Shown here: positions 4,807 to 28,700 of the stretch, in pieces
Numbering within the stretch: position 1 is the stretch's first letter
Layout of the letters: every line of letters starts with the position of its first letter
From: Saprospiraceae bacterium
Lineage (GTDB): Bacteria > Bacteroidota > Bacteroidia > Chitinophagales > Saprospiraceae
Length of the DNA stretch: 64,000 bases
Reading direction: 5' to 3'
Assembly (NCBI GenBank): GCA_041392805.1
Contig: JAWKLJ010000001.1
Coordinates: 4,843,101 to 4,907,100 of the forward strand
The notes under the pieces: model-generated
What the model was told of the DNA's origin: nothing
The model's input: only the letters and a program-made list of their open reading frames with translations
The model's database searches: none
Made by a program: the position numbers and the translations under genes

Positions 4807-5102
4807 ACAGTAATTTATTTATAAAATTATAAGACTTGTGTATACATTGAATAGCGGATTTAACTATTTTTGCTTTGAGATTTCTACCCTCACTCTCTGA
4901 ATTGCCATGTGCGGCAGTCATCCCCCTTTTTACAACGGAAAAGTATTTAGACTGAAATGATGCAGATCAATTCATCTGTTGCAACTAGTTGGCTTTCAAA
5001 GTAACTAATTGCTTGGTTTTGAGTATACCATTTCAGTATTATTTCACAGGACACTTGTGTAAAGGTGGTTGCAGTAGCTGTGAAGACACTAAGAAAAATC
5101 CC

Positions 5103-8397: not shown

Positions 8398-9075
8398 ATG
8401 CAAATAATCAAAACCTTACTTGCGGACGACCACTACATTTTTATTGAAGGGCTGAAAACCGTATTAAATGAGGCCTTACAATATCAGATCAAAGTTATAG
8501 ATGTTGCTCGTAGTGGAGAAGAACTTATCCAAAAAGTAAAATCGGCAAGAGCTGACTTGGTCATCACAGGCCTAAATTTATCTGGTAAAGATGGCCTGGA
8601 TGTCATTGAGGTGGTGCGTCAAAGTAAGAATCCCATTAAGGTATTAGTACTCAGTGCCTATGATGATCCGAAGATCGTCAAAACCGCTTTTAAATTAGGT
8701 GCTGATGGATATATACTGAAATGCCAGCCTTTGGTCGAGTTGTACCAAGCAATACACGAAATTTTAATGGGGAATACCTACGTCGGAAAAGGAATCCATT
8801 TAAATGGCACGAATGGTAGCGGCCATGGTAGCCATGGAATTCACCAAGCTGTTTTTGATTTTGAAGATCGTTTTATCAAGAAATACAACCTGACTAAACG
8901 GGAGTTGGAGATTCTGGGCTTGATTAGCCAGGCACTAAACAATAAGGAGATAGCAAAAGAGCTATACATTAGTGACCAAACGGTGGGTGTTCATCGCAAA
9001 AATATTATGCGGAAGCTTGGGGTGAGCAATACGGCAGGTTTGATTAAGTTGGCCTATGACTATAGTTTGGTGTGA
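8398..9075 (+). CDS. LuxR/NarL-family response regulator (receiver plus LuxR helix-turn-helix); receiver appears to lack the phospho-acceptor Asp
   Basis: N-terminal receiver domain (LLADDH acidic pocket, GADGYILK lysine). C-terminal LuxR-type helix-turn-helix (LTKRELEILGLISQALNNKEIAKELYISDQTVGVHRKNIMRKLGV). The position aligned to the NarL phospho-Asp reads LVITG instead of LILLD. Confidence 0.85.
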   Translation: MQIIKTLLADDHYIFIEGLKTVLNEALQYQIKVIDVARSGEELIQKVKSARADLVITGLNLSGKDGLDVIEVVRQSKNPIKVLVLSAYDDPKIVKTAFKLGADGYILKCQPLVELYQAIHEILMGNTYVGKGIHLNGTNGSGHGSHGIHQAVFDFEDRFIKKYNLTKRELEILGLISQALNNKEIAKELYISDQTVGVHRKNIMRKLGVSNTAGLIKLAYDYSLV

Positions 9076-13000: not shown

Positions 13001-16000
13001 GTACATTAGAGTACACAGGTGCACCAAGTATTGGTGATAACTGTTCTGGTGCTACTTACGACTGGTACGAGGAAGTATTATATGGTGAAGACGAAGCTTG
13101 TGATGATTTACGAATTCGTCGTGTATTCACTGTAACTGACGGTGCTGGATTGAAAGCATCTTGCACACAGTATATCACTGTTCGCAAACCTACCTTGGCT
13201 GATGTTACTGGACCAGATGAATTGATTGAATTGAGCTGTGATGATGAATTCGAATATGATGCAAATGGCCACCCATCTCCACCAGAGACAGGCGGATACC
13301 CATATGTTACTACTATTTTCGATGATCACAACTTGGCACAAACATACTGCAACCTTGCAGCTACTTACTCAGATTCTGACTTGATCGAAATTTGCGAAGA
13401 TAGCTACAAATTTATCCGTACTTGGACAGTACTTGACTGGTGTCACCCAGGTCAGTATACAACCTATACTCAGTTGATCAAAGTAGGAGACTTTGACGAT
13501 CCAATCGTTACTGCTCCAACTGCTGACTACGACTGGGATGGTCACTTAGACATCTTGTCTTACTCTACAGGTCCATTCGATTGCTCTGGTGCATTCGAAG
13601 TACCAATGCCTGGTGTTACCGACAACTGCTCTGGCTGGACAGTAACCACTGAAATTCTGAAAGACGGAACAACTCCTGTATTGACTATCGCTCCAGGTGC
13701 CAACCGTTTCGTAAGTGGTATTCCAATGGGTTGCCATGCTTTCCGTTACTGGGTAACTGATGGTTGTGGAAACCAAACTGACATCACTGTACCTTTCATG
13801 GTAGAAGACAAAGTAGCTCCTGTAGCTGTTTGTGATGATGACTTAAACATCTCTATCGGTGGCCAAGGCTACGCTAGAGTATACGCTACTGATATCGACG
13901 AAGGATCTTGGGATAACTGTGGACCAATCCGCGTTGAAGTACGTCGTTTGTACAACGAAGATGCTGATTGTAACCCAATTACTTCTTACTTCAGCGAATG
14001 GGGTGAGTATGTAGACTTCAGCTGCTGCGATATCGGAGATGCTGTAAGAATCGAATTGCAAGTATGGGATGACCGCAACGGTGACGGTATTCCAGGTAAC
14101 ACAATTACTATCGTTAACTGTGATGGTCAGGAAGTTGTTGTAAAAGACAACAGCAACACTTGCTGGTTAGACGTAACAGTAGAGGATAAATTGAATCCAT
14201 ACTGTGTACCTCCTCACAACAAGACCATCACTTGTGATGCATTACCATACGACTTCGATCCTAGTGACATCGAATTGTTAGAGGACCTATTCGGTCAGGC
14301 TGACTACGCAGACAACTGCCCAGGTGCTTCTGTTGAAGAAAATGCACCAGTTATTACAATTGACGATTGTGGAACAGGAACGATCCTACGTTCTTTCACT
14401 GCTACAGATGCAGTAGGATTAACTTCTACTAACAGCTGCCAGCAGTTGATTACCATTACAGAAGTACACAACTACGAAATCCGCTTCCCAGCTGATGATT
14501 CAGCTGATTGTGGTGTAGCTGATCCTGATACGATTACTTTCAACGAGATTGGTTGTGACCTATTGGCCGTAAGTGTAGAAGATGAATTCTTCTCTGCTTC
14601 TGGCGATGAGTGCTACAAAATCTTCCGTACTTACCGAGTGATTAACTGGTGTGAGTATGATGGTGAAGCACCTCCAGTAGTTGTAAGCCGTGACGAAGAT
14701 TGTGATGGCAAACCTGGTGATGAAGCAGTTTGGGTACTACGTAGACCAAACGGTGCTGTTTACTTCGACCGTGATAACGTTGAGACTAACAACAACCCAC
14801 TTGCAGGTACTAAAGGCACATCTTGCGATGGCTTGACGAACCCTAAAGGTTACTGGATTGACAGCTACATTGATGCTAACGCAACACGTGATCCTATCAC
14901 TGGTCAGTTGGATAACAACTACACCAACGATAACATCCGTAACATTGATACAAGAGGATACTGGCAGTATACACAGGTCATCAAAGTTTACGACAGTGTT
15001 GACCCAGTTATTACTGTTGAGGCATACGATGCATTCCCATCTTTGGATAATGTAAACTGTGACGGATTAGTAACTATCAACTTCAAAGTTGAAGATGAGT
15101 GTACAAGAGAAGAAGGCTTGAAATTTGTTTGGTTGGATGCATTTATCAATGATGCTGACGGTGACGGAAACTTCACTCAAGCAGAATTTGTAAAAGATCA
15201 TGATGTAACAGCTCAAATCACTGGCGATGCTTCTGGTTACACTTACTCTGCAGAATTGCCACAAGGTACACACGCCTTATTGATCAAAGGATCAGATGGT
15301 TGTGGAAATGAGACAGTTGACCTGATTATCTTCGAAGTAGTAGATACTAAAGCACCAGCACCAGTTTGTATCAATGGTTTGGCAGTAGAATTAATGCCAA
15401 CTGAGCCAGGTACTGACGCTGATGGCGATGGTGACGAAGACAGAGCTGCAATGGCTATTTGGGCAAATGACTTTATCGCTAGCCCAATCTATGACTGTAA
15501 CGGTCAAGGCCCAGCAGTAGATGCAAACGGTAACGAATTGGTTACTGCTTACTCTATCAACTTGGTAGGCGCAGAACCTAACCGTGACTCTACAGGTATC
15601 GTATTAACTTGTGATAACGACGAAACAACTATCGTGGAAATCCACGCTTGGGATGAAGTTGGAAATCATGACTACTGCGAAACTTACGTTTTAGTACAAG
15701 ATTTGATGAACAGATGTGAAGGTGGTGAAGATGGTGCCATTGCTGGTAACATCAAAACTGAAGGTGGAGAAGGTGTTGCTGACGTTGAAGTTTCTTTAAG
15801 TGGCTTCATGAATTCAATTTACACTACTCAAAACGACGGTTACTACGTATTCCATAACCTTCCAGTGAACGACTACTCTGTAGCTCCTCAATTGGATGTG
15901 AACTACTTGAACGGTGTATCTACTTTTGACCTTGTATTGGTAAGCAAACACATCTTGGGCATCCAATTATTGGATTCTCCATACAAAATGATTGCTGCTG

Positions 16001-16941
16001 ACGCAAACAACAGTAAGAGTATCACTACACTTGATATGATCGAAACTCGTCGTAACATCTTGGGTATTACGAATGGCTTTACTAACAATACAAGCTGGCG
16101 CTTTATTGATGCTAACTATGTATTCCCATTCCCTAACAACCCATGGTATGAGCAAGTTCCTGAAATTAAATCTGTTAATGACCTTGTAGGTGAAATAGAG
16201 CTTAATTTCGTAGCTGTCAAAATATCTGATGTTAACGCAAGTGCACGACCAAACGGTTTAGTGAGCATCGACGATCGTAGCAATGGTTCTTTCGCATTCA
16301 ATGTTGAAGATATCGCTATGGTTGCTGGTAACACTTACAATGTTGACTTCACTGCTAAAGATATCGCTGCTATCGCAGGTTACCAAGGTACTTTCACTTT
16401 CGGTGAAGCTATCGAAATGGTAGATATCGTATACGGTGTCGCTAAAGAAGGAAACTTCGGTACTAACTTTGTTAACGAAGGAATGTTAACTACATCTTTC
16501 AACGACGAAGCATCTGCTGATGACGTTCTGTTTACTTTAGTAGTTCGCGCTAACCAAGACGCTTCATTGAGCGAACACCTTGGCTTGAGCTCTAGAGTTA
16601 CACCTTCTGAAGCTTACAACAACGACGGTGACAAACTTGATCTAGCGATCAACTTTAGCACAGGAAAAGTACAGTCTGTTGCTTTCGAATTGTACCAAAA
16701 CCAGCCAAACCCATTCCAGGGTGAAACTGTTATCGGTTACAACTTGCCAGAAGCAGCTCAAGTTACTTTCACTGTAAGTGATGTAGCTGGTAGAACACTC
16801 AGAACGATCCGCACTGAAGGTGCTAAAGGATATAACAATATCCTCATCAACAGCAAAGATCTTCCTGCAGCTGGTGTATTGTATTACACTGTTTCTACTG
16901 ACAATTACACTGCAACTAAGAAGATGATTATTGCTCAATAA
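10021..16941 (+). CDS. Giant (2306 aa) secreted HYR/Ig-repeat adhesin-like protein ending in an Ig-like / dockerin-like / cohesin-like cassette and a T9SS sorting domain
   Basis: Signal peptide (MKLAFLLVATLCFGLTPITGQG; alternative start at 10063). Many roughly 80-100-aa repeats ending in ...TVTD..G....C.Q.ITV / W.V.DWC-type HYR/Ig motifs. Strongly acidic, rich in Asp/Thr/Val. C-terminal dockerin-like pair (GVSTFDLVLVSKHILGI...ADANNSKSITTLDMIETRRNILGI), a cohesin-like domain, and a T9SS sorting domain (YQNQPNPFQGETVIGYNL...). Confidence 0.85.
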   Translation: MEKTNFTFVHPTQWMKLAFLLVATLCFGLTPITGQGQDDADPVPGEDICLPPALTITGCDEDGATLTWYSVNGDHHEGINDHCWLIKVTGAGPVHFAGGGIIGVVVDYLGAQLHNAIVEVEICEGDDALTIAPVPGHPGIYSVTYDLSSNLIQPGTAYWAAVAEVCNRMPVLGNNSSWNFQRDLLVNYHIGGPFDTDEIFDEYPWDGYEGYFKTKDSQFTASSDYEKTSCPEETNGYVEDGCIVVTIGDGESCWGLYNITIDGDLMLVGGEEAVGAGEYTFCGYGVGPHDVDVELVNGCNPPTRRLEADVVIPNGMDMVSPIITVADFFAGTLLANEGGDVIALGDMLIPEGSCSMKSYFIVTGVDNCDGEICDGDAVTAEATDGPANVDPGTQVQVYNQDQYVDTGEGIVHLQGCEWVVEINWSVGASEVTVCLDDAEEAGLSAPTCVTITANVIDAQDALIDAPAVNYTIPECQDQVTVFYSFQIDDGCDNDIDFDQVFFDAFAFGGISLDAITELSIENGYAEVILTFGTDGFQNDFIDDGLLLITYIDDFGNVYTAQPFFNLYNSTINADPVITTTGNAFTALACEDGGEVVLGVTVTDDCEDVLDDVKISGDGSGDLTAAPAVRNGTSAYFEFSGTLAADEYSFTFKYPGAGDVTVAVVVSQEDNHAPGVDMPGNTTFTIPSCQDDVTAVWSVQITDDCDEAIDLSEVCITVGGGACIAIPSANATVVSTGEGMALIELNYDLTLAANGAAFAVSYTDGSGATTSKSSTVSVNGTPDVIKPVIVYPTEAITKVLDPCGPNTTDIKFSVSAIDNCAGNVAVSVSAPGRIAMSSVPEGDADKWTITYAASATPYQITLSANDGHGNTTTQTMWVSVTQAPAPPVNLACHTGLQAPVGYQCEVELTPAMVLEGSMGCLTPADIEIVVKGKQRGAVWANYTEGTGLHQFDVYINGNYFCTGNITTYDNIPPSIECPADDPADYVCTDIDELLGTLEYTGAPSIGDNCSGATYDWYEEVLYGEDEACDDLRIRRVFTVTDGAGLKASCTQYITVRKPTLADVTGPDELIELSCDDEFEYDANGHPSPPETGGYPYVTTIFDDHNLAQTYCNLAATYSDSDLIEICEDSYKFIRTWTVLDWCHPGQYTTYTQLIKVGDFDDPIVTAPTADYDWDGHLDILSYSTGPFDCSGAFEVPMPGVTDNCSGWTVTTEILKDGTTPVLTIAPGANRFVSGIPMGCHAFRYWVTDGCGNQTDITVPFMVEDKVAPVAVCDDDLNISIGGQGYARVYATDIDEGSWDNCGPIRVEVRRLYNEDADCNPITSYFSEWGEYVDFSCCDIGDAVRIELQVWDDRNGDGIPGNTITIVNCDGQEVVVKDNSNTCWLDVTVEDKLNPYCVPPHNKTITCDALPYDFDPSDIELLEDLFGQADYADNCPGASVEENAPVITIDDCGTGTILRSFTATDAVGLTSTNSCQQLITITEVHNYEIRFPADDSADCGVADPDTITFNEIGCDLLAVSVEDEFFSASGDECYKIFRTYRVINWCEYDGEAPPVVVSRDEDCDGKPGDEAVWVLRRPNGAVYFDRDNVETNNNPLAGTKGTSCDGLTNPKGYWIDSYIDANATRDPITGQLDNNYTNDNIRNIDTRGYWQYTQVIKVYDSVDPVITVEAYDAFPSLDNVNCDGLVTINFKVEDECTREEGLKFVWLDAFINDADGDGNFTQAEFVKDHDVTAQITGDASGYTYSAELPQGTHALLIKGSDGCGNETVDLIIFEVVDTKAPAPVCINGLAVELMPTEPGTDADGDGDEDRAAMAIWANDFIASPIYDCNGQGPAVDANGNELVTAYSINLVGAEPNRDSTGIVLTCDNDETTIVEIHAWDEVGNHDYCETYVLVQDLMNRCEGGEDGAIAGNIKTEGGEGVADVEVSLSGFMNSIYTTQNDGYYVFHNLPVNDYSVAPQLDVNYLNGVSTFDLVLVSKHILGIQLLDSPYKMIAADANNSKSITTLDMIETRRNILGITNGFTNNTSWRFIDANYVFPFPNNPWYEQVPEIKSVNDLVGEIELNFVAVKISDVNASARPNGLVSIDDRSNGSFAFNVEDIAMVAGNTYNVDFTAKDIAAIAGYQGTFTFGEAIEMVDIVYGVAKEGNFGTNFVNEGMLTTSFNDEASADDVLFTLVVRANQDASLSEHLGLSSRVTPSEAYNNDGDKLDLAINFSTGKVQSVAFELYQNQPNPFQGETVIGYNLPEAAQVTFTVSDVAGRTLRTIRTEGAKGYNNILINSKDLPAAGVLYYTVSTDNYTATKKMIIAQ

Positions 16942-16964
16942 TCGTCCTTCGATGAAATACATTT

Positions 16965-16996
16965 GGAGTGGCCCTTTGGGTCACTCCATTTTTTTT
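16965..16996 (+). terminator. Rho-independent terminator (first of a tandem pair) after the giant adhesin gene
   Basis: ggagtggccctttgggtcactcc hairpin followed by atttttttt. Confidence 0.6.
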
Positions 16997-17090: not shown

Positions 17091-17897
17091 ATGAAACATG
17101 CAACTGGAATACTTTTCCTGCTGTGCCTCCTTTCTCTATTTTGTATTGTTCCTGTCTCAGGTCAGGTCTCTATTTTTCTCACTGACGCTACGGTTCAACC
17201 TGGAGAAACCTTTACCGTTCCGGTAAAAGCGGCCAATTACCAATCTATTCTTAGTACCCAGTTTTTTATACGCTGGGACCCTACAGTACTTTCTTTTAAG
17301 AATGTGGTTGATCTACATCCACCATTTGACTTTGTAGATCACTTCGGAGCATTGTCGGCCCAAACACAAGGTACCTTAGCCTTCGCATGGTTTGACACTG
17401 GCTCTCTAAGTGGCATTAATATTGAAAATGATTCTTCTTTGTTTTCCATTGAATTCACCGCCGTAGGAAGTTATGGCGAATATTCAAAAATTGAATTTTA
17501 TGAAGATCCTTCAGATGCATCCACTATTACAGAAATAGTCGATACTTCCTATAAAGCTATTCCTTATGAAGTAACTGATGCTACGATCTCTTTGGGCGAG
17601 ACAGTAAACACTCTCTTTAATTCTGCGCCTGATAAAATATTGATAAAACCGTGTTACCCCAATCCTTTCACCCATCATACAACTTTAAATTTCAAACTTA
17701 CACAAGCAACAACCATTCATCTAAACATCTTAGATTTACAAGGAAAAACAGTTTTTGAGGAACAAAGGTATTTTGGTAGTGGCCAACATCAGCTGACATT
17801 AGAAAAGGACGTCTTTAGTCAGCCAGGTATTTATTTCTACCATCTTACCTCACCTTCTTTCAAGGTGACTCAAAGACTTGTGTTTTTAGAGCAATAA
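17091..17897 (+). CDS. Small secreted protein with a single cohesin-like domain and a T9SS sorting domain
   Basis: Signal peptide. Cohesin-like beta-sandwich signature (QFFIRWDPTVLSF...GTLAFAWFDTG...FSIEFTAVG). C-terminal sorting domain (KPCYPNPFTHHTTLNFKLTQATTIHLNILDLQGKTVFEE). Confidence 0.75.
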   Translation: MKHATGILFLLCLLSLFCIVPVSGQVSIFLTDATVQPGETFTVPVKAANYQSILSTQFFIRWDPTVLSFKNVVDLHPPFDFVDHFGALSAQTQGTLAFAWFDTGSLSGINIENDSSLFSIEFTAVGSYGEYSKIEFYEDPSDASTITEIVDTSYKAIPYEVTDATISLGETVNTLFNSAPDKILIKPCYPNPFTHHTTLNFKLTQATTIHLNILDLQGKTVFEEQRYFGSGQHQLTLEKDVFSQPGIYFYHLTSPSFKVTQRLVFLEQ

Positions 17898-17928
17898 ATT
17901 ATATTCCCTAACATCCCAAATTCCGAAC

Positions 17929-20900
17929 ATGATGGATAGGATTTTTACACGCCTATTTGCCGGGCTCCTTTTGCTTATTCCAATAAGCATTTCGGCAAAC
18001 CCTACCATTGGTAGGACTAATGATCTTGAAGGATTTACGATAACTTTAGAGGATTTTGATGCAAATCAAGGCGATCAAATCTGCTTAGACGCTAGCGTCA
18101 GCGGATTTATGAATATCCTTGGTATGCAATTCTCTATTAATTATGACCCTGCAATTCTTCAATTTAACAACATTTCCAATACGAACCTTACGGGCCTAAG
18201 CCCTAACTCCTTTGGAAACCCCTCTGCGGGCAACATTACCATGTCATGGTCTGATCCTAATGCAGTGGGCCTTACGCTCGCTGATGGCACGGTAGTTTTT
18301 GAAGTTTGCTTCACCGTAGTGGGCACTGCCGGTACTACGGTCACTTTTTCCGACACGCCTACGCCAACTGAAATTGTTGACGGTACCTTAACTGTTATTG
18401 GTTTCACTGGCCAAGAATCAGCGGTAACGGTTAATGGCAATTCACCAGGTGGTGGTGGCGGCGGCGGCGGTGGTAACACCGGAATTACCCTGACAATCGA
18501 AGACATAGCAGCCAATCAGGGCGACCAGGTCTGTCTTGATGTGACGGCTTCTAATTTTACGAATATTCTGAGCTTACAAAATTCCATTAGCTATGACCCC
18601 GCAGTTTTACAGTTTAGCTCCATTTCAAACACTAACCTTGCAGGCTTAAGTGCTAACTCGTTTGGAAACCCTTCGGCAGGCAAAATTACGATGTCCTGGG
18701 CTGATCCGAATAACACTGGGCTGTCAGTGGCAGATGGGACCGTCCTTTTTGAAATCTGTTTTAATGTTATTGGAACAACATCTACAACTGTTGTCGATTT
18801 TTCTAATACACCAACACCTATAAAGGTAGTAAACGGCGCTCAGACGGAAATAGGGCTTACCAGCAATTCTGGAACAGTTACGGTTACTGGAAATAATGGT
18901 GGCGGCGGTGGCGGTGGCGGAAATGAAAATCCGAATTTTACAGGATTTGGATTGGCGATTGAAGATGTCAGTGCTAACCAAGGGGATCAGATTTGCTTAG
19001 ATGTGGTTGCCTACAATTTTAATAGTATCCTTGGTATGCAATATACCATTAGTTATGACCAGTCCAAATTGCAGTTCAGCTCTATTGCAAATACAAATCT
19101 TGCCGGTTTAAGTGCCAATTCTTTTGGCAATCCCACACCGGGTAAAATCACCTTGTCTTGGTCTGATCCGAATGCTGTAGGGGTTTCTGTAGCAGATGGG
19201 ACGGTTATTTATGAGGTGTGTTTTAATGTCTTGGGAACCACTTCTACAACGGTAACTTTTACAAGTTCTCCAACGATCATCGAAATTATTGACTCGGGCT
19301 TAAATGAAATTAGCTTTGAGAAAAATGATGGTGTTGTCACGCTGAATGGCGGTGGCGGCGGTGGTGGCGGTGGTGGTAACACTGGACCCTCTTTCACAGG
19401 ATTCGGTGTTGTCATAGAAGATACTGCTGCAAATCAAGGCGACAAAGTTTGCCTGGATGTAACGGCGTATGATTTTGTAAATATATTGGGAACACAGTTT
19501 ACCATTAATTATGATCCCGGTCGATTACAATTTGTAGAAATTGCAAATCCCAATTTGGTAGGGCTTTCTTCCGGCGCCTTTGGCAACCCTTCTCCAGGAA
19601 ATCTAACTTTTTCTTGGTCTGATCCCAATGCTGTAGGTGTTACAGTACCTGATGAAACGGTTATTTTCCAAATCTGTTTTAATGTTTTGGGTAATAATAC
19701 GAGCACAACGGTCAGTATTTCTGGTACACCTACAGGTATTGAAATCATTGATAGTGGATTAAATGAAGTTCCGTTCAACTATGATAGTGGTACGGTTACC
19801 ATTAGCGACAATGGTTCGGGACCGGGTTTTGAGGGGTTTGGAATTATTGTAGGGGATAAAAGCTTACAAGAAGGAGATTCTTTTTGTGTGCCAGTTAGTG
19901 TACAAGAATTTGTAGGAATACTTGGTATGCAGTTTACCATTTCCTATAATGCCACAGAATTGCAACTAGACCAAATAACGGGATTTAACCTTAATGGTTT
20001 GGCCGCAGCCTCTTTTAATTCTAGTACGCCTGGTACTATCCGATTTACATGGGATGATCCTAACGCAACTGGAGTGACTTTAAATCCTGCCGACGATCCG
20101 AATACGATATTCGAATTGTGCTTCACCGTTATTGGAACCAATAGTTCTCAGATTTGTATTGTAGATACACCTGTGGCAGTTGAAATCACAGCTTCCGATC
20201 TAACGGTTATTACGCCAACCCTCATCTGCGGTAATATTCTGGTAGGAGAAGATCCTCCACCAACCGTTACCGCTACCATTACAGGCGTTAGTTGCCCGGG
20301 AGAAAATAATGGATCTATTGCATTACAAGTGAGTGGTGTAGGACCTAACTACAGCTACCAATGGAGTATTCCTGGCCTAGGAAATGCCAATACAGCAAGT
20401 GGACTTTCTGCAGGAAATGTAACCGTTACGGTCACCGATAATGGGACCAACCTGCAAACCATAGAAACATTTACGGTGCCCAGTCCTGCTGCTATGAACA
20501 TTACCCCTACGATAAAGCATGCAAGTTGCTCAGATGCTACAGATGGTAGTATCAGCCTTGCGGTTACTGGGGGAACTGGGCCATTTACCTACAATTGGTC
20601 TCCTACAGGGACGAATACAAGTCAAAATACGGGGCTTGCATCTGGTGTTTATAATGTAACGGTTACAGATAGGAATTCCTGTGTTACAACTGCTGGGCCT
20701 TTTATCGTTGAAAGCCCTTCTGCGATTAACATTAGCGTTATTTCTGTACAAAATGTGCAATGTGCGAGCGACCAAACGGGCGCCATTGCTATTGCAGTAA
20801 ATGGAGGTACACCACCATACAGTATTAATTGGAATGGCAACCTTCCTGATAATACAACAACGCAAAGTGGATTATCTGCCGGCAGCTATTCCGTCGTGGT

Positions 20901-23400
20901 TTCGGATGCAAACAACTGTTCTAAAAGCTTGAATAATATCAATATCTTAAGTGCATTCGATCCTATTGTGATCAGCTTGAGTCTTACCCCTATTCCAAAT
21001 ACGGCTGGGGGAACTGGTTCTATAAATGCTTCTATTTCGGGCGGTACCGGCCCTGGAACCTATGGATTTTCTTGGACAGGACCGGGAGGGTTTACCTCAG
21101 CTTCTGAAGACCTTAACAACCTCACCGGCAAAGGGGAATATTGCCTTCAAGTGACAGATAACAATAACTGTGTAGAGACGATTTGTGTAAATCTTGGTAA
21201 TTTATTGGAAATCACTTCCTTTAATATTGTAAAAGCTTGTGAAAATACCTGTAATGGTGCTGTAAATATATCAACAGTGGGTGGCCTTACCGGTGGGAGT
21301 GCTACCTTTGCATGGCAACGGGTCGGCGAAAACCCTGTAATCAGCTCTGTTGAAGATTTGACCAATGTATGTGCCGGTACCTATCGGGTAACCATTGTGA
21401 AAGATGGCCAAGAAGTAACGGGTACATTTGAGGTAACTAATTTCGAATTGGATATTCAAGCGACTACAACTCCTTCTACCAACAATACGAATGGAACCAT
21501 TTCTATCAATATATCAGGTGGAAATTCAGGTTATAGTATTGTATGGGATAATGGAGATACAGGTCCAAATGCCAATGAACTTCCTGCGGGAGAAATATGT
21601 GCTACGATCACGAGTAATGCAAATGGTTGTGCTACGCAGGAATGCTTTATTATCCCTTCCCTCCCATTTACCTTGTCAGGAATGAATGTAACTGAAACAA
21701 CCTGTAGCGGAAGAGCGGATGGTCTAATTGCCATCGTTGTAGTAGGCGGTATTCAGCCTTATTCGCTTTCGGTTGCCGGGCGGCCAGCACTTAGCCAAAC
21801 GAATGCTGCTGGCACCTTCAATTTGGTCGGTTTAGCATCGGGCTCTTATAATATTACAGTTAAAGATGCCCTTGGTTCCGAATTGACGCCCGTAGCCGTT
21901 GTTCCAGATGTAGCGCCTATTGCCGTAGACTGGGAAGTTGTAAATGATACAGAGGACCCCGGAGGATCAGGTTCAATTACATTGGATATTGCCGGCGGTC
22001 GGGCACCCTATTCAATAGGTTGGAATATTCCGGTGAATGGCCCCCAACCTATTCAGTTGGCTTGTGGAACTTACACGCCTATTATTGAAGATGCCAATGG
22101 TTGTGTTAAAGACGGTATCGAAATAGAGGTGTTGTGTTTTACTGAAGAGGCTACAACTGCAAATGTATCTTGTCCAGGTGATACAGATGGATCACTAAGT
22201 ATCGCATTGACCGGAGCTGCACCTTACCAATTCAAATGGAAAAACCTAAGTACAAACGAAAATTTTGAGGCAGGTGAAAACCTGACAGATTTGGCCGCAG
22301 GAAACTATTCCGCTACCATAACGGATAATTCAGGTGCCGTATTGATTAGAACCTATGTGATAGGAACGCAATCTGGACTAAGATTTAATACCTTAGAAAC
22401 CGTATCTTCTTTTAACGGATTTGCCGTTAGTTGTAATTATGCCAGTGATGGTGTTTTGCGTGCAGTAGGTGGCGGCAACCAAGGACCACTTAGCTATGAA
22501 TGGTTGAACGAAGATGGCGCCGTTGTCAGCTCAGCTTCTACTTTTAATTCAGCATCTCCGGGCGTTTATACGATTAGGGTTTTTGATGATGTTTGTGTGC
22601 TTGAAGAGACGATCGAGGCAAATGCCCCAGCGCCACTCGCTGTAGAAGCGATTAACCTAAAAGGAATTAGCTGTGCTGATGAATTTGATGGCCAAATCAA
22701 CGTATTGGCAAGTGGCGGAATTAGTCCTTATATCTACCGATGGAGTAGCAACGACTTTGGTGATGAGGCCCGTTTCCTCGGTGCAGGTGATTATACTGTT
22801 ACCGTTACAGACAAAAACAATTGTGTAGATGCATCTACTTTCACCATTGCGGAACCGGCACCATTAGAGGTAGTAGTCGAGACAGAGCCTGAAACAGAAA
22901 ACTGTAATGGGGCCGCAAGGGCCATCGTTACAGGAGGTACAGAACCTTATTCCTACAACTGGATAAAACCGGCAGGCTTGAATACGGCACAGATTGCGGG
23001 CCTTTGTAATGGTACCTACTTTGTGGAAGTAACAGATGCCAATGGTTGTACCTCTGCACAAGGGGAGGTTGCCGGAGTGGTTAAAGATAAACGCTTCCCA
23101 TGTTTTGAAGATAGGGTAGTATTGACACCCGATGGAGATGGACTCAATGACGCTTTAATTATTTTCTGCTCGGATGAATATCCTCAAAATCATATTGAGA
23201 TTTATAATCGCTGGGGACAATTAGTCTATGAGGAAGATAATTATGATTGTACGGAACTTGGTGGAATGAATTGTTTCGCTGGTGAGACCATTCGAGGAGA
23301 AGCCTTACCGGAAGGGGCCTATTATTGGGTACTCCAGTATGTAGATACGAATGGAGATAATATCCAAATGAAAGGTTCATTGACGATCTTGAGAGAGTAA
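17929..23400 (+). CDS. SprB-repeat cell-surface protein (1823 aa) with five N-terminal tandem cohesin-like modules and a gliding-motility-associated C-terminal domain (type-B T9SS sorting domain)
   Basis: Signal peptide. Five roughly 125-aa repeats (ANQGDQICLD...LGMQFSINYDP..LQF...G.ITMSWSDPN..G...ADGTV.FE.CF.V.G) separated by Gly8-10 linkers. At least 10 SprB-type repeats (C.G..NGSI...V.GGT.PY.Y.W). C-terminal VVLTPDGDGLNDALIIF...YNRWGQLVYEE matches the gliding-motility C-terminal domain. Confidence 0.85.
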   Translation: MMDRIFTRLFAGLLLLIPISISANPTIGRTNDLEGFTITLEDFDANQGDQICLDASVSGFMNILGMQFSINYDPAILQFNNISNTNLTGLSPNSFGNPSAGNITMSWSDPNAVGLTLADGTVVFEVCFTVVGTAGTTVTFSDTPTPTEIVDGTLTVIGFTGQESAVTVNGNSPGGGGGGGGGNTGITLTIEDIAANQGDQVCLDVTASNFTNILSLQNSISYDPAVLQFSSISNTNLAGLSANSFGNPSAGKITMSWADPNNTGLSVADGTVLFEICFNVIGTTSTTVVDFSNTPTPIKVVNGAQTEIGLTSNSGTVTVTGNNGGGGGGGGNENPNFTGFGLAIEDVSANQGDQICLDVVAYNFNSILGMQYTISYDQSKLQFSSIANTNLAGLSANSFGNPTPGKITLSWSDPNAVGVSVADGTVIYEVCFNVLGTTSTTVTFTSSPTIIEIIDSGLNEISFEKNDGVVTLNGGGGGGGGGGNTGPSFTGFGVVIEDTAANQGDKVCLDVTAYDFVNILGTQFTINYDPGRLQFVEIANPNLVGLSSGAFGNPSPGNLTFSWSDPNAVGVTVPDETVIFQICFNVLGNNTSTTVSISGTPTGIEIIDSGLNEVPFNYDSGTVTISDNGSGPGFEGFGIIVGDKSLQEGDSFCVPVSVQEFVGILGMQFTISYNATELQLDQITGFNLNGLAAASFNSSTPGTIRFTWDDPNATGVTLNPADDPNTIFELCFTVIGTNSSQICIVDTPVAVEITASDLTVITPTLICGNILVGEDPPPTVTATITGVSCPGENNGSIALQVSGVGPNYSYQWSIPGLGNANTASGLSAGNVTVTVTDNGTNLQTIETFTVPSPAAMNITPTIKHASCSDATDGSISLAVTGGTGPFTYNWSPTGTNTSQNTGLASGVYNVTVTDRNSCVTTAGPFIVESPSAINISVISVQNVQCASDQTGAIAIAVNGGTPPYSINWNGNLPDNTTTQSGLSAGSYSVVVSDANNCSKSLNNINILSAFDPIVISLSLTPIPNTAGGTGSINASISGGTGPGTYGFSWTGPGGFTSASEDLNNLTGKGEYCLQVTDNNNCVETICVNLGNLLEITSFNIVKACENTCNGAVNISTVGGLTGGSATFAWQRVGENPVISSVEDLTNVCAGTYRVTIVKDGQEVTGTFEVTNFELDIQATTTPSTNNTNGTISINISGGNSGYSIVWDNGDTGPNANELPAGEICATITSNANGCATQECFIIPSLPFTLSGMNVTETTCSGRADGLIAIVVVGGIQPYSLSVAGRPALSQTNAAGTFNLVGLASGSYNITVKDALGSELTPVAVVPDVAPIAVDWEVVNDTEDPGGSGSITLDIAGGRAPYSIGWNIPVNGPQPIQLACGTYTPIIEDANGCVKDGIEIEVLCFTEEATTANVSCPGDTDGSLSIALTGAAPYQFKWKNLSTNENFEAGENLTDLAAGNYSATITDNSGAVLIRTYVIGTQSGLRFNTLETVSSFNGFAVSCNYASDGVLRAVGGGNQGPLSYEWLNEDGAVVSSASTFNSASPGVYTIRVFDDVCVLEETIEANAPAPLAVEAINLKGISCADEFDGQINVLASGGISPYIYRWSSNDFGDEARFLGAGDYTVTVTDKNNCVDASTFTIAEPAPLEVVVETEPETENCNGAARAIVTGGTEPYSYNWIKPAGLNTAQIAGLCNGTYFVEVTDANGCTSAQGEVAGVVKDKRFPCFEDRVVLTPDGDGLNDALIIFCSDEYPQNHIEIYNRWGQLVYEEDNYDCTELGGMNCFAGETIRGEALPEGAYYWVLQYVDTNGDNIQMKGSLTILRE
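18031..20220 (+). repeat. Five tandem cohesin-like coding repeats of about 450 nt, separated by in-frame GGC/GGT (poly-Gly) simple-sequence tracts
   Basis: Protein-level periodicity of about 150 aa. Glycine-codon runs at about 18451-18480, 18898-18925 and 19348-19380. Confidence 0.75.
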
Positions 23401-23495
23401 AGGTTTTATTGCCAGGTGGGTGGTTCTATTCACCTGGCAATACTTAAACCTCCGTTGCTTATAATATTATTTTCCCATGACTTCAACCGATTAAC

Positions 23496-24422
23496 ATGAA
23501 AAAAATAACTTTACTCCTATCATTTTTAGTTTTTACGACAGCACTTGTCGCTCAATATGAAGCCATTTTCAACCATTATAACCTTAGCAATGGTAGCCGT
23601 AACCTCATTAACCCAGCTGCTGCGGGGTTCGATGCAGTTTCTCAGCTCCAATTTAATCTGAGAGCTCAATGGACCGGCTTTGAAGATGCACCTAAAACTT
23701 ATGGTGCACTTTTTAATGCTCCTATTGGAAAGGCCTTTGGCTTGGGCCTAGGTATTTACTCAGAACAAGCGGCCCAATTGGCTAATTTGCGAATTTTTCT
23801 TAACTACGCTTTTCGCTTTCAGCTTAGCGAAGACTTTAAGGTCTCCGCTGGTTTTTCAACTGAATTTCAGCAAATGACCTTGAATAGCGATGTGCTGAAC
23901 AAACCGCTATTACAATTGGGCGATGACTTGGTTGATGAATTCCTCAGTGGTAAAGGTATTTTTGATGCTGCAATAGGGTTTTATGGTACTTTTCGTGAAA
24001 ATACCTTTGGTGGCTTGAGTCTAAATAACCTCGTCCGAAACAAATTGGATGAAATGGTTGCTTCTCCACAACAATCTACCTCCATCTTTCAATATTATAC
24101 CTTTATTCTAGGGCATAAATTTGACTTGTACGACCTCAATTTTAGCTTGGAGCCATCACTGGCAATTCGTCAGATCTTTAGCACCCCAGCATCAATGGTT
24201 GACATCAATTTGAAAGCGGGTTTCTTAGAAGATCAACTCATTGCAGGACTCTCTTATCGAACAGGGACATCTATTGCAGCGCTTGGTATTCTGCTCGGAA
24301 CCAAGTTGTCTGGCTTTAACCTATATTATTCTTATGATGTCTCTTTCGCACGTTTCCAGGACTATAGCGTAGGTTCTCATGAAGTGACAGTGGCTTTTAT
24401 CTTTGAGGGTAAGGATCAATAA
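23496..24422 (+). CDS. PorP/SprF-family T9SS outer-membrane protein
   Basis: 308 aa with a signal peptide and beta-barrel-like alternating hydrophobic pattern. It sits immediately downstream of a protein with a type-B sorting domain, which is the usual arrangement for SprB/SprF-like pairs. Confidence 0.75.
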   Translation: MKKITLLLSFLVFTTALVAQYEAIFNHYNLSNGSRNLINPAAAGFDAVSQLQFNLRAQWTGFEDAPKTYGALFNAPIGKAFGLGLGIYSEQAAQLANLRIFLNYAFRFQLSEDFKVSAGFSTEFQQMTLNSDVLNKPLLQLGDDLVDEFLSGKGIFDAAIGFYGTFRENTFGGLSLNNLVRNKLDEMVASPQQSTSIFQYYTFILGHKFDLYDLNFSLEPSLAIRQIFSTPASMVDINLKAGFLEDQLIAGLSYRTGTSIAALGILLGTKLSGFNLYYSYDVSFARFQDYSVGSHEVTVAFIFEGKDQ

Positions 24423-24460
24423 ACTACTAAGATGTCCTTTTAACAATTGGTTTTTGGGAT

Positions 24461-24496
24461 GACCTCTCTCCTGTTCGGGGAGGGGTCGCTTGTTTT
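24461..24496 (+). terminator. Rho-independent terminator after the PorP/SprF gene (copy 1 of a duplicated terminator module)
   Basis: gacctctctcctgttcggggaggggtc hairpin (with U-G wobble pairs) followed by gcttgtttt. Preceded by the conserved lead-in ggtttttgggatg. Confidence 0.55.
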
Positions 24497-25148
24497 ATAA
24501 TTTCTTTGCCTTTTCAAAATACCTTTTTTAGGGTATTTTTAGCATTGAAATAAACCGTATATTTGTTAGGTATATAAGAAACAAATTATAATCCTTGGTC
24601 TTAAATAGCTTTATGCTATCTTTCATCTCTTAGCTTCAGCTTGCCTCCTACGTGCTTGCCTTCCCTAAGAATCGAAGCGATCCTGGATTTCCTTCTAAAG
24701 AGCTTTGAGCGTCTTCCCAAAAAAAACAGTAATATTTTAGAGAATGAGTGTGTAAAGCTTTTTTCACATTATCATCTCTAATGGCACACCCTAGCATTGT
24801 TGTCTTTTGATGCCAATGTCTTTTATGTGGTGTGATGCTTACCTTTTGTATGATCATAGACCCTTGAGGTAAGGAGGTGAAGCTCCAAATAGCGTCCAAT
24901 CAATGGTAGGCAGCGTTTGGCGTTTCGGTTAGTTACTCAAGGTTTTTGATCTGATTTTCTAGGGAATACATATTTTAAAAAAATCCTTAGATTTTATTTT
25001 ATACGAATGAAACCTTAAAGAAGATAGTCCGTAATACTCTATATAACTTTTATGAAACCTCAAAGAAAATTATAATTAAGGCGATTGGATTGTATGTGAT
25101 TCACACAAGAACCGTTTTCAAGTGTATACTTAAATCGGTTTTTGGGAT

Positions 25149-25191
25149 GGCCTCTCTTCTATGCAGACAGAAGGGGGGCTTTTTTTATTTT
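25149..25191 (+). terminator. Rho-independent terminator (copy 2 of the duplicated module) inside a gene-free 1.3-kb interval
   Basis: ggcctctcttctatgcagacagaaggggggc hairpin followed by tttttttatttt. Same ggtttttgggatg lead-in as copy 1. Confidence 0.55.
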
Positions 25192-25715: not shown

Positions 25716-28700
25716 ATGAAACACTTTAATCGCAATTTAGCACAGGGGAGGAGCAGTCTAGTAACTGCGTTTTTCCGCTGGGGTGCAGGGAAAAAAGCGG
25801 GGGTGCTACTCCTTACCTTTTTTGCTATGATCCCTTTGTTTAGCCAGGATTGTGACCTCGCTTGCAATGGATCAATTGAAGCTCCCATCCAATTATCAAT
25901 CGGAACAGATTGTATGGCTAATTTTGATTTTGATGCCATACTCGAAGCGCCACAGGTATGCCCAGGTACCAAATCACTGGTGGTTAGAAATGAGATGAAT
26001 ATACTGGTGAGCGATGGCATGAATGAAGTCGCTTTTGATGCATCCCCCTACCTTGATAAAATATTGAGTGTCACCGTTACAGATGTAGCAACGGGTGTTT
26101 TTTGTGTTGGATTTATCCATATTATTGACAAATTAGACCCCGTCATAAGTAATTGCGAAGATGTAACGGTAAATTGTATTGATAATACGACACCAGAAGG
26201 AACGGGCTTTCCTCAAGGGAAAGACAACTGTAGCAGTGACCTGCAGATGACCTTTACAGATGAAGTGTTGGATGGAAACTGCACCTCCGGATTGATGAAA
26301 ATGATCCAAAGAACCTGGACGGTTAAGGATGATTTCGAAAATACGGCTACTTGTGTACAAACCATCACGGTTGAACGTCCTAATGTACAGGATGTCGCCT
26401 TTCCACCCAATATTAACCTTAGTTGCGATAACCCTAATGCAGATGGAGAAATAACCGGCGTACCTACTTATGGTGGCCAACCCATCAGTACCAGTAATGA
26501 ATGTGGGTTAGTTGTAAAAATGACAGCTGACACAGCCTATATCTGCGGGGAGTTTGAATACCAAATTCACCGGTCCTGGTTGGTAACCGATGTATGTTCA
26601 GGCTTTGAAAGTACCGATTTGCAGATCATTCATGTTAAAGATACTACTCCGCCCGAAATTACCTGTCCGGCAGATTTTACGGTAACGACGGAAGGCGGTG
26701 ATTGTATTGCCACCCTTAGCTTACCCGAACCTACCATGGTAGATAATTGCGATCCTGGGGTGACTTTTGAAGTGAGCACTTCCTTTGGCGCAGTAGGCCT
26801 TGGACCCCACCCATTTGTCCCTGCTGGGATGCATACAATACAGTATATCGCCACAGATGCTTGCGACAATTCCTCTAAATGCACGATGACCGTCAATGTA
26901 TTAGACAGTGATGAGCCCTTTGCGGTGTGCGAAAATTTCACCATCATATCAATCCCTTCCGGAGGAGTGGCGATGGTATTGGCTAACACCTTTGACGATG
27001 GCAGTTTTGATAATTGTCAAGATGAAATCTTTTTCAAAGCCAGAAGAATGAACCTGGGCGGATGTGATGCCATCAACGGCGATGACTCCAGTGTAATTGA
27101 AGGCTACCAGGAGTGGTTTGATGACCGGGTATTCTTCTGTTGTAATGAGGCAGAAGGAGGGGACATCCAAGTGATTATGCGCGTCTATGAAATAGATCCG
27201 GGGCCAGGACCTGTCGACCCTCAAAGAGAAATAACGGGAGGAGACCTACATCGCCACTACTCAGAATGCATGGTAATGGTGCAAATACAGGACAAAATTC
27301 CGCCTCGGTTTTTAACTTGTCCCGAAACGGTGACCATAGAATGTAAGGATGACTATTCGGACCTCAGCATATTTGGTACGCCACATGTAGAAGACAATTG
27401 TGGCTATACGCTAGATTCTACAGCTATTGTAGCGATCAATGATTGTGGAATAGGGAGTATTATCAGAACATGGGAGGCTTCGGATGCCGTAGGGAATACA
27501 GCGAATTGCCGACAGGAGATCTTGGTGATCAATTCCAATCCATTAACGGAGGAGGAGATCGTTTGGCCAGACGATTTTACAACAGATATTTGTGGTTCAA
27601 GTATTGACCCAGAGGACCTCCCCGATGGCCATAACGAACCTCAAATAATAGGCGATCACTGTGGGATTATTAGTTTTAATTACCACGATCAGGTATTTGA
27701 TGTAGCCCAACCGGCTTGTTATAAAGTACTGCGAACCTGGACGGTGCTAGATTGGTGTCGGTATGATCCCGATAACCCCAATAGCGAAGGTAAATTCCAG
27801 AGTATTCAAATTGTAAAAGTGGTAGATAAAGTAGCCCCGGTTATTACCTGCCCACCTGCTGTAACTGTTAGTGTATCAGATGATTGTGCTACAGGGGAAG
27901 CTGAACTTGGGTTGGCCAGCGCAGCTGATTGCAGTACAGGCATTTTGATAACCAATAATTCGCCATATGCCAATAACAATGGCCCCAATGCTAGCGGAAA
28001 TTATCCCCTGGGCATCACTACCGTAACCTACACGGCAGCTGACCGTTGCGGGAACACGGCCTCCTGCCAGGTGAATATTACTGTGGCAGATAATGAACCG
28101 CCGCAACCGCTCTGCATTGTAGGTTTGTCTTCTTCCATTTATGAAGAAGAAGGTGAATTAATGACCCGTCTGAATGCCAAATCTTTTGATGCTGGCGCCA
28201 AGGATAATTGCACGCCTTCTGCGCAATTGAAATTCACTATACGTCGCAATGGTTCGGGTGATATGACAACACCACAGACCCCAGAAATCATTTTTACTTG
28301 TGAGGACCTCGGTACCCAACTCGTCGAACTTTGGGTGACGGATGCACTTGGCAATAGCAACTATTGCCTTACCTATGTGGATATCCAAGACAACAATAGG
28401 CTTTGCCCACAAAGTAACACGAGTTCCGGCGCTATTCTGGCAGGAGGAATAACGACGGAAGATGGAGAATACGTAGAAAATGTCAATATCAATGTTTCAG
28501 GTGGTGGCCATTTCCAAATGTTGACGGAAGACAATGGGCACTATTTATTCCCTGATATTCCTTTTGGCGAGGATTATACCGTCGTGCCCGTCCGGAATGA
28601 CGATTTATTAAATGGGGTAACCACCATTGATCTGGTCCTGATCTCCAAGCATATTCTCAATAGCCAGAAACTGGATTCTCCCTATAAACTCATAGCGGCG

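Follow-up and report, generated by a model that had tools for sequence, protein, structure and literature searches.

Cohesin–dockerin assembly is the textbook mechanism of the Gram-positive cellulosome, and the secretion system called type IX (T9SS) is a signature of the Bacteroidota, serving both secretion and attachment. Among described T9SS substrates, SprB–SprF and Fjoh_3952–Fjoh_3951 of Flavobacterium johnsoniae and PG1035–PorP of Porphyromonas gingivalis are pairs in which an outer-membrane barrel collects cargo with a type-B sorting domain and holds it on the cell surface (PMC9143113, PMC12618676). Here we describe a locus of a Saprospiraceae bacterium in which cohesin–dockerin assembly and the T9SS are joined. 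It lies in the window, by which we mean the whole 64,000-nucleotide stretch of contig JAWKLJ010000001.1 that was analysed, and centers on the gene for an 1823-aa multi-cohesin protein, referred to below as the scaffold, which is followed by a PorP/SprF-family gene and has dockerin-bearing proteins encoded on both sides. We put at somewhat better than even the chance that this protein is a PorP-anchored, non-cellulolytic scaffold onto whose cohesins T9SS cargo docks.

With the clostridial cellulosomal scaffoldins (CipA, CipC, ScaB) and the anchoring proteins OlpA, OlpC and SdbA, the scaffold shares a tandem array of near-identical, type I-like cohesins. Its candidate partners carry an EF-hand-type dockerin, as in cellulosomes, and cohesin-only, dockerin-only and mixed proteins again occur within one family. 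However, the host here is a Gram-negative member of the Bacteroidota, the anchoring elements are a type-B T9SS domain and a PorP/SprF barrel instead of surface-layer homology (SLH) domains or sortase, and the linkers are poly-Gly where those of cellulosomes are Pro/Thr-rich. A Pfam scan found no carbohydrate-binding module (CBM) in the scaffold. The cargo also differs, comprising a peroxidase, adhesin-like proteins with HYR or Ig domains and an occasional M36 protease, and the dockerin is not terminal, being apparently placed inside a transthyretin-like domain and followed by the protein's own cohesin. Since CBM, glycoside-hydrolase cargo (among 37 sampled family proteins) and SLH or sortase anchoring are all missing, the system is not a cellulosome.

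The use of cohesins and dockerins outside cellulose degradation has precedents in the Archaeoglobus fulgidus cohesin 2xdh and the GH84/GH33 toxin complexes of Clostridium perfringens, and some non-cellulosomal cohesin or dockerin proteins carry both modules. In a Foldseek comparison 2xdh aligned with a scaffold cohesin at a TM-score of 0.78, and 2jh2 and 2vo8 were fold matches in separate comparisons. Those systems have single modules on enzymes, whereas the present locus encodes a dedicated, membrane-anchored multi-cohesin scaffold within a conserved cluster, alongside thousands of T9SS-tied proteins with the dockerin cassette described below. In full-text literature searches, nothing came up that connects cohesin or dockerin modules with the T9SS, with SprB or with the Saprospirales. 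The metagenome-assembled genome (MAG) that contains one of our comparison loci, L038, was noted to have “cohesin-related genes”, which were read as cellulosome parts (PMC8547425). A cellulosome-style kit built on the Bacteroidota T9SS, and kept in dozens of genomes, has apparently never been studied.

The scaffold gene and its partner have the following features.

17929..23400, forward strand: scaffold gene, 1823 aa, in which a signal peptide is followed by five cohesin modules, then by 12 SprB-type repeats and last by a type-B C-terminal sorting domain (CTD)
17929..17997, forward strand: putative Sec signal peptide, about aa 1–23 (MMDRIFTRLFAGLLLLIPISISA), recognized by reading the sequence
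18031..20244, forward strand: five cohesin modules at 18031–18435, 18481–18888, 18943–19344, 19399–19803 and 19834–20244, delimited by a self-built hidden Markov model (HMM)
18448–18474, 18898–18921 and 19348–19377, forward strand: poly-Gly linkers G9 (aa 174–182), G8 (aa 324–331) and G10 (aa 474–483)
20257..23082, forward strand: stalk (aa 777–1718) made up of 12 SprB-type repeats, each about 77 aa long and matched by a self-derived HMM
23119..23388, forward strand: type-B T9SS sorting domain (aa 1731–1820), Pfam CHU_C 76.2 bits against a cut-off of 27
23496..24422, forward strand: PorP/SprF-family outer-membrane protein, 308 aa, no cysteine, starting 95 nt downstream of the scaffold gene

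The scaffold is identical to GenBank protein MEZ5041746.1 from a Saprospiraceae MAG with a contig of 5.76 Mb, annotated as “cohesin domain-containing protein”, and its individual domains are already named in public annotation. An earlier note on this DNA, made from the sequence alone, had placed both open reading frames correctly (17929..23400, 1823 aa, and 23496..24422, 308 aa, both on the forward strand), and most of its domain description stands with some corrections of detail. The five N-terminal cohesin-like repeats that it proposed are recovered as five stretches by Pfam Cohesin (PF00963; E 2.7e-56, 190 bits against a cut-off of 24.1) and agree with the fold evidence given below, but the modules are about 135 aa long by our HMM and not the 125 aa or so that it gave. 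Its Gly8–10 linkers are found at three junctions (G9, G8, G10) and are lacking between modules 4 and 5, where the junction reads DNGSGPGFEG. Alignment of the five modules with one another, which the note had suggested, gave 55–64% mutual identity for modules 1–4 and 36–43% identity between module 5 and the others. At least ten SprB repeats had been claimed and 12 are present by the self-derived HMM; Pfam SprB matches eight stretches (E 5e-44). The linkers, G8 to G10, are encoded by imperfect (GGY)n triplet repeats, and their homologues range from G4 to G10; taken together, these observations make slippage-driven variation in linker length possible.

A cohesin fold had been set beforehand as the point on which structure prediction should decide, and the prediction bears it out. 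The AlphaFold2 model of cohesin module 3, made with an alignment of 13 modules from three genomes, is all-beta with a pLDDT of 96.4 and a pTM of 0.89, and all of the top 50 matches of this model in a Foldseek search against the PDB are cohesins. The best of them come from solved complexes between a type I cohesin and a dockerin (CaCohA2, ScaB Coh6, CipC Coh1 and OlpA), with TM-scores of 0.80–0.85. A profile of the 13 scaffold modules likewise finds solved cohesins among the PDB sequences, at E 2.2e-11. On the evidence of the all-beta model and its matches to cohesins, whose fold is a nine-stranded beta-sandwich (jelly-roll), the scaffold modules are cohesin-fold domains of a type I-like kind.

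The gliding-type C-terminal domain named in the earlier note is supported by the CHU_C match and not by TIGR04131, with which it scores 30.5, under the cut-off of 35. This shortfall arises because a Cys-x7-Cys-Phe loop (D-C-T-x-L-G-G-M-N-C-F-x-G), which probably forms a disulfide, stands in place of the usual N-x-W-x-G motif. The same Cys-loop variant is common to the closest homologues and is present in 18 of 110 relatives, and it is therefore a subfamily trait and not a sequencing error. A frameshift or assembly error was considered as the source of the odd CTD and ruled out, as the variant is kept in homologues.

That the downstream gene encodes a PorP/SprF protein is confirmed by both family models, PF11751 (PorP_SprF; 153 bits, profile positions 4–273 of 273) and TIGR03519 (169.5 bits against a cut-off of 90.55, full length), which make it a full-length family member. 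The PorP/SprF family consists of 14-stranded FadL-type barrels (Gorasia 2022, PMC9143113), and it is from this membership that the window PorP is predicted to be a barrel (PMC9143113). PorP-like proteins both anchor and carry adjacent type-B cargo (PMC9143113, PMC12618676); by analogy, the window PorP is presumed to be the cognate carrier and anchor of the scaffold. The arrangement resembles PG1035–PorP and Fjoh_3952–Fjoh_3951, in each of which a type-B CTD gene is linked to its own PorP-like gene and the cargo stays surface-bound on the barrel (PMC9143113, PMC12618676). It differs from them in that the passenger is predicted to be a multivalent docking platform and that the CTD belongs to the Cys-loop subfamily. 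The scaffold belongs with those type-B cargo proteins that have a PorP-like shuttle and is not a SprB orthologue.

SprB repeats, a type-B CTD and an adjoining SprF-family gene are also what a SprB-type gliding adhesin would have, one that is propelled on the gliding track and uses its cohesins only as a substrate-binding tip. In these features the locus does resemble SprB–SprF of F. johnsoniae, with the role of the barrel taken from homology (PMC9143113, PMC12635249). Moreover, no porE-like gene is found beside PorP; such a neighbor is associated with non-mobile cargo and its absence with mobile cargo (Gorasia 2022, PMC9143113), which favors a gliding adhesin and speaks against a static anchor. 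However, coupling of SprF to the moving GldK track requires a Cys-X-Cys at the SprF C-terminus that is disulfide-linked to the track (PMC12635249), and among 44 orthologous PorPs whose C-terminus is complete not one has a C-x-C in its last 30 aa, the window PorP having no cysteine at all. Neither sprC-like nor sprD-like genes are present in the cluster. Furthermore, the scaffold, at 1823 aa, is one quarter the size of the 669-kDa SprB (PMC9143113) and has a cohesin head that SprB does not possess. A propelled gliding adhesin therefore seems very improbable. SprB orthology was rejected on the same missing tail (44 of 44 orthologues), and its absence from the PorP sequences leads us to regard the scaffold as probably a static anchor rather than a track-driven adhesin.

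Core T9SS genes were not found within the 64-kb window, where a T9SS is implied by the five proteins with type-A CTDs. In Lewinella sp. LCG006, the T9SS translocon gene sprA (L001:24011–27221) lies about 6 kb downstream of the scaffold's PorP.

The candidate partners of the scaffold are encoded on both sides of it.

4989..8000, forward strand: animal-type haem peroxidase, 1003 aa, fused to a cassette at 6762–7994
10021..16941, forward strand: giant Cys-rich, HYR-like adhesin-type protein, 2306 aa, with C-terminal cassette at 15715–16938
17091..17897, forward strand: small protein of 268 aa (p268) with a signal peptide, one scaffold-like cohesin and a type-A CTD
25716..29675, forward strand: HYR-domain protein, 1319 aa, with C-terminal cassette at 28407–29672

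The haem peroxidase and the 2306-aa and 1319-aa proteins share a C-terminal cassette of about 410 aa, which begins with a CarboxypepD_reg/transthyretin-like domain, continues with a dockerin, a region of about 65 aa that we call X and a cohesin of divergent sequence, and ends in a type-A sorting domain of the T9SS. The earlier description of these neighbors as dockerin-bearing is well founded. Pfam Dockerin_1 (PF00404) scores 24.4 bits in the 1319-aa protein (cut-off 22.9) and 20.9 in the 1003-aa protein, with no match in the 2306-aa protein; the dockerin and X region is 54–57% identical among all three, and its profile matches solved dockerins at E 2e-5. Besides this profile match the domain is predicted to have the fold of a dockerin, with three helices and two F-hand loops, of which the second has a canonical Ca pattern (D-x-D/N-x-N/S-G...D) in all three proteins and is followed by an R-K/R pair. 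In the AlphaFold2 model of the cassette, made without the sorting domain and from an alignment of window and database sequences, the dockerin is predicted to be inserted in a loop of the transthyretin-like sandwich, which the X strands complete (28407–29390, 6762–7727 and 15715–16656). No PDB chain covers such a dockerin-in-transthyretin arrangement, and a loop-inserted dockerin is a placement not seen in cellulosomal proteins.

An exhaustive profile search of representative proteins with the dockerin and X region revealed a family of at least 10,541 proteins at E <1e-3, 3,858 of them at E <1e-30. With few exceptions the module is placed some 350 aa before the C-terminus, and the proteins reach 5,226 aa in length. 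As the family extends far beyond the window neighbors, the clients of the scaffold, if any, would not be limited to those neighbors. In 37 sampled family proteins the cargo consists of repeats of the HYR, Ig-like and SdrD-like kinds, with an M36 metalloprotease and a P-domain once each, and glycoside hydrolase domains were found in none of the 37. Among the best 146 matches, 98 show the canonical architecture, in which a single dockerin and a single cohesin precede the CTD. At least 18 others have two to three dockerins but lack a cohesin, as Pfam confirms by Dockerin_1 scores that reach 74.6 bits and by the absence of any Cohesin match. Some proteins mix scaffold-type cohesins, SprB repeats and dockerins (cohesin plus dockerin in P0255, P0272 and P0273). 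In multi-dockerin proteins without a cohesin, the dockerins can only act in trans. Two to five dockerin-X modules with few or no cohesins and a type-A CTD were also seen in P0250, P0254, P0260, P0265, P0266, P0267, P0270, P0275 and P0241; P0241 has five matched stretches, or four after overlap resolution, and P0266 has three. Such multi-dockerin relatives, P0250 and P0241 among others, could be linkers or adaptors of a network. The occurrence of socket-only, plug-only and mixed proteins in one family is the picture that a genuine trans-interaction network would give.

The linkage of these genes is conserved. We scanned genomes for loci anchored on PorP and searched every locus with the module HMMs; the orthologous set comprises 40 loci with PorP at least 35% identical, from Saprospiraceae, Lewinella, Neolewinella and one Chitinophagales MAG, and six further loci were anchored on the scaffold instead. 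A type-B CTD lies directly upstream of PorP in 39 of the 40 orthologous loci, and about 114 of the best 120 scaffold homologues combine Cohesin, SprB and CHU_C. The 26 complete scaffolds have 3–13 cohesins and 9–20 SprB repeats; a variable copy number of near-identical cohesins is a scaffoldin-like trait. A small cohesin gene like that of p268 is present in all 22 loci with at least 1.1 kb of upstream sequence and also in L052–L055, and the p268-type protein is a conserved third partner, perhaps acting as a surface-attached single socket or a cap. Cassette proteins are encoded upstream in six of the nine loci with enough flank, and in three more with slightly less, and downstream of scaffold and PorP in 10 of 28 orthologous loci; where 10 kb of sequence flanks the scaffold on either side, as in seven loci, a cassette protein is encoded every time, sometimes more than one. 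By contrast, neither cohesin nor dockerin was found in any of the 11 PorP-paralogue loci (no more than 28% identity; Flavobacteriales, Cyclobacteriaceae), most of which do have SprB repeats and a type-B CTD. In the scaffold-anchored loci a fuller cluster is visible, running from a LuxR-type regulator through a giant cassette protein, the small cohesin protein and the scaffold to PorP, and often continuing with a HYR cassette protein. A homologue of the giant cassette gene holds the equivalent position in L001, L002 and L052–L054. The scaffold of Lewinella sp. LCG006 (L001:10094–14290) has ten cohesins, a divergent first module followed by nine in which two subtypes for the most part take turns, one scoring about 160 bits with the HMM and the other about 100, a pattern that suggests expansion by tandem duplication of a two-module unit.

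The gene order at about 40 loci, the 11 paralogue loci without either module and the existence of dockerin-only proteins strengthen the earlier proposal that the protein is a scaffold for its dockerin-bearing neighbors. From the architecture, the folds and the conserved linkage described above, we infer that cassette dockerins dock on the stalk cohesins, which are candidates for Ca2+-dependent dockerin binding.

Several results weigh against docking of this kind. The first Ca loop of the cassette dockerin is degenerate: position 5 is occupied by Leu, a hydrophobic residue, or by Thr, and position 1 varies. The four modules of the cassette model form one rigid body (pLDDT 95.6, pTM 0.91), and a mean-field direct coupling analysis, underpowered at a Meff of 206, hints at weak links of the dockerin with X and with the edge of the cohesin in the same cassette. 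Taken together, the rigid prediction and the weak couplings mean that the binding face of the dockerin may lie buried or be occupied in cis. With 10,541 representative proteins the dockerin-X family greatly outnumbers the scaffold family (339 matches), which implies that most cassette proteins are not encoded next to a scaffold. In L035, L036 and L037, the most divergent scaffold clade (3 cohesins, 16–20 SprB repeats and no copy of the RNA core introduced below), there is no cassette gene within 2.7–4.5 kb upstream. On the anchoring side, the window PorP had no match among PDB sequences, whether searched as a single sequence or as a profile.

The rigidity and the couplings would be accounted for if each cassette dockerin is clasped to its own cohesin or to the flanking domains and never docks on the scaffold. 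The five cohesins would then be ligand-binding or spacer beta-sandwiches, directed at prey or host surfaces, polysaccharide or another partner, and the synteny would reflect co-regulation of surface proteins and not physical assembly. The same explanation would suit the 98 of the best 146 proteins with exactly one dockerin and one cohesin, and the short cassette-only proteins found on long contigs (P0144, P0174, P0181, P0213). However, it does not sit easily with proteins that have two to three dockerins and no cohesin, nor with P0255, P0272 and P0273, in which scaffold-type cohesins and dockerins are mixed. Likewise, the scaffold cohesins occur in 3–13 copies as in scaffoldins and have dockerin-binding type I cohesins as their best structural matches, and the cluster contains only one dockerin class against three cohesin classes. 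We regard a cassette locked in cis beneath an adhesin head as unlikely.

Every cargo protein has both a plug and a socket, and it is conceivable that cassette proteins chain head-to-tail into a polymeric matrix or sheath, each being held by its dockerin on the cassette cohesin of its neighbor. Several chains per anchor would then be nucleated by the multi-cohesin stalk, the small cohesin protein would cap or seed them, and the haem peroxidase would cross-link the HYR-rich matrix; this amounts to a special case of docking on the scaffold in which cargo-to-cargo links dominate. Linker-like multi-dockerin proteins such as P0241 and P0266 fit such chains, as does the peroxidase-cassette fusion, which is kept next to the cluster in two genera. 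Animal haem peroxidases are known for cross-linking of extracellular matrix, which we count in favor of a matrix together with the formation of sheaths by some Saprospirales, mentioned in one source for Haliscomenobacter (PMC3156403). On the other side, the rigid cassette of the model would need domain swapping to open. Overall, a predominantly head-to-tail matrix appears decidedly unlikely.

In the model that we favor, that of a PorP-anchored scaffold for T9SS cargo, the scaffold would be exported by Sec and then pass through the T9SS by means of its type-B CTD. The cognate PorP/SprF-like barrel would collect it and stay bound, as suggested by SprB–SprF and PG1035–PorP. The stalk of 12 SprB-type repeats would hold the five type I-like cohesins, joined by flexible poly-Gly linkers, off the outer membrane, and secreted type-A cargo would dock onto them by its cassette dockerin; cargo dockerins may also bind the cassette cohesins of other cargo proteins. 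Locally, the cargo would be the haem peroxidase and the two giant HYR-type adhesins, and the outcome would be a multivalent display of adhesins and enzymes unrelated to cellulose. If the scaffold does bind cassette dockerins, this would be a third route of T9SS cargo retention, besides linkage to A-LPS and direct binding to PorP, and would explain the surface retention of large adhesins and exo-enzymes. It would also give a function to a module of more than 10,000 distinct uncharacterised proteins, and would offer synthetic biology new orthogonal cohesin–dockerin pairs and a Gram-negative display chassis. The hosts of the cluster, Saprospiraceae and Lewinellaceae, are abundant in marine particles and activated sludge and on algae.

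A conserved element lies in the 1.3-kb gap without genes that follows PorP.

25077..25190, forward strand: tentative RNA-like element of about 110 nt, with a 5′ domain, an invariant core and a terminator hairpin with U-run
25129–25150, forward strand: invariant 22-nt core CTTAAATCGGTTTTTGGGATGG, recognized by conservation among loci
25149–25180, forward strand: covarying terminator hairpin with U-run, with compensatory changes at 5 of 10 pairs
17911..17927, forward strand: tentative target site ACATCCCAAATTCCGAA, complementary to the core and ending 2 nt before the scaffold ATG

The element is 89–96% identical at the DNA level where the PorP proteins are only 45–60% identical. A 19-nt core occurs once, on the same strand and downstream of PorP, in 35 of 55 loci and in none of the PorP-paralogue loci, and a partial second copy of the element is found in the window at about 24448–24488 (GTTTTTGGGAT plus hairpin). 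Rfam searches, in both gathering and E-value modes, and ARAGORN, used for tRNAs, returned nothing significant; PyrR and BTnc201 were set aside as Rfam identities, their matches having E >0.1 and sharing only a hairpin-plus-terminator geometry.

The predicted duplex between the core and ACATCCCAAATTCCGAA has 9 bp, a 2-nt interruption and 4 bp, at −22.0 kcal/mol. When the core was compared with 31 translation-start regions of the window the scaffold was best, the runner-up reaching −15.4 kcal/mol, and ACATCCCAAATTCCGAA is the best non-trivial site for the core in the whole window on both strands. Whole-locus scans of 12 Saprospiraceae-type loci place the scaffold-start site at rank one or two in every case. 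The Neolewinella clade has a weak scaffold site and, in the PorP start region, 13 perfectly complementary bases; almost all PorP start regions contain TCCCA...AACCGATTT. The start-region motifs occur only rarely in the rest of the window, and a generic translation-start feature of the genome was rejected as their source.

When metagenomes were scanned for nothing but the core, 111 contigs were selected, and about 80% of those with a determinable context place the core at the 3′ end of a PorP operon or of a cassette gene. In 35 contigs it lies downstream of a scaffold-type PorP, and in 26–28 it follows the stop codon of a type-A CTD gene by 31–168 nt; all 20 such genes with enough upstream sequence are dockerin-X-cohesin cassette genes. 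These contexts suggest that the core is a seed-bearing small RNA (sRNA) or 3′ untranslated region module linking the expression of cargo, scaffold and anchor. As a reading of complementarity, pairing at the RNA level has in our view about as much for it as against it, and the alternatives are that a regulator binds the core as DNA, in either orientation, or that the core belongs to a conserved terminator module which serves some other function. With this element, post-transcriptional control becomes testable on a concrete example in a phylum for which few sRNA–target pairs are known.

A broader view would be that of a T9SS-based cohesin–dockerin interactome of the Saprospirales in three layers, namely stalks, cassette cargo and dockerin-only linkers, together with an RNA module that tunes the synthesis of scaffold and anchor. 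It would constitute a non-cellulolytic layer on the cell surface, assembled in modular fashion from adhesins, proteases and peroxidases. In the RNA module, which comprises the invariant 22-nt seed and a terminator and lies at the 3′ end of cassette genes and downstream of the scaffold–PorP operon, the seed would pair with the translation-initiation regions of the scaffold and PorP mRNAs, so that cargo expression tunes both. Taken as a whole we hold this possible but doubtful.

Further features of the window concern the transcription unit and its possible regulation.

8398..9075, forward strand: LuxR/GerE-type response regulator (Pfam Response_reg and GerE), upstream of the giant gene
16964..16988, forward strand: hairpin resembling a terminator that follows the giant gene and bounds the unit of p268, scaffold and PorP on its upstream side
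24460..24488, forward strand: terminator-like hairpin after PorP, preceded by the partial copy of the RNA core, GTTTTTGGGAT

The two hairpins, at 16964 and 24460, bracket p268, scaffold and PorP as one transcription unit. The p268 stop codon lies 31 nt ahead of the scaffold start codon, and the p268 protein matches Pfam Cohesin (45.7 bits) and Por_Secre_tail. A scan for sigma-70 promoters gave nothing above the shuffled expectation, with a consensus that is unsuited to Bacteroidota promoters. The orphan response regulator is a candidate regulator of the cluster: a response regulator stands upstream of the giant cassette gene in L002, L052, L053 and L054 also, and in L055, which has no giant gene, it is directly upstream of the small cohesin gene, with a HisKA_3 kinase adjoining.

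The peroxidase protein matches Pfam An_peroxidase (496 bits), Dockerin_1 (20.9 bits) and Cohesin. The TTG start listed for its gene is probably wrong, the start being an ATG at about 5103 that is followed by a signal-peptide-like stretch. The peroxidase-cassette fusion adjoins the cluster in Lewinella sp. LCG006 too (L001:1–2841). An HMM scan of the window found no cohesins or dockerins beyond those of the scaffold, p268 and the three cassette proteins. A 404-aa protein with a type-A CTD (62151–63368, reverse strand) has no recognizable passenger domain and is unrelated to the cluster by its position. The remaining genes of the window belong to unrelated metabolism and transport.

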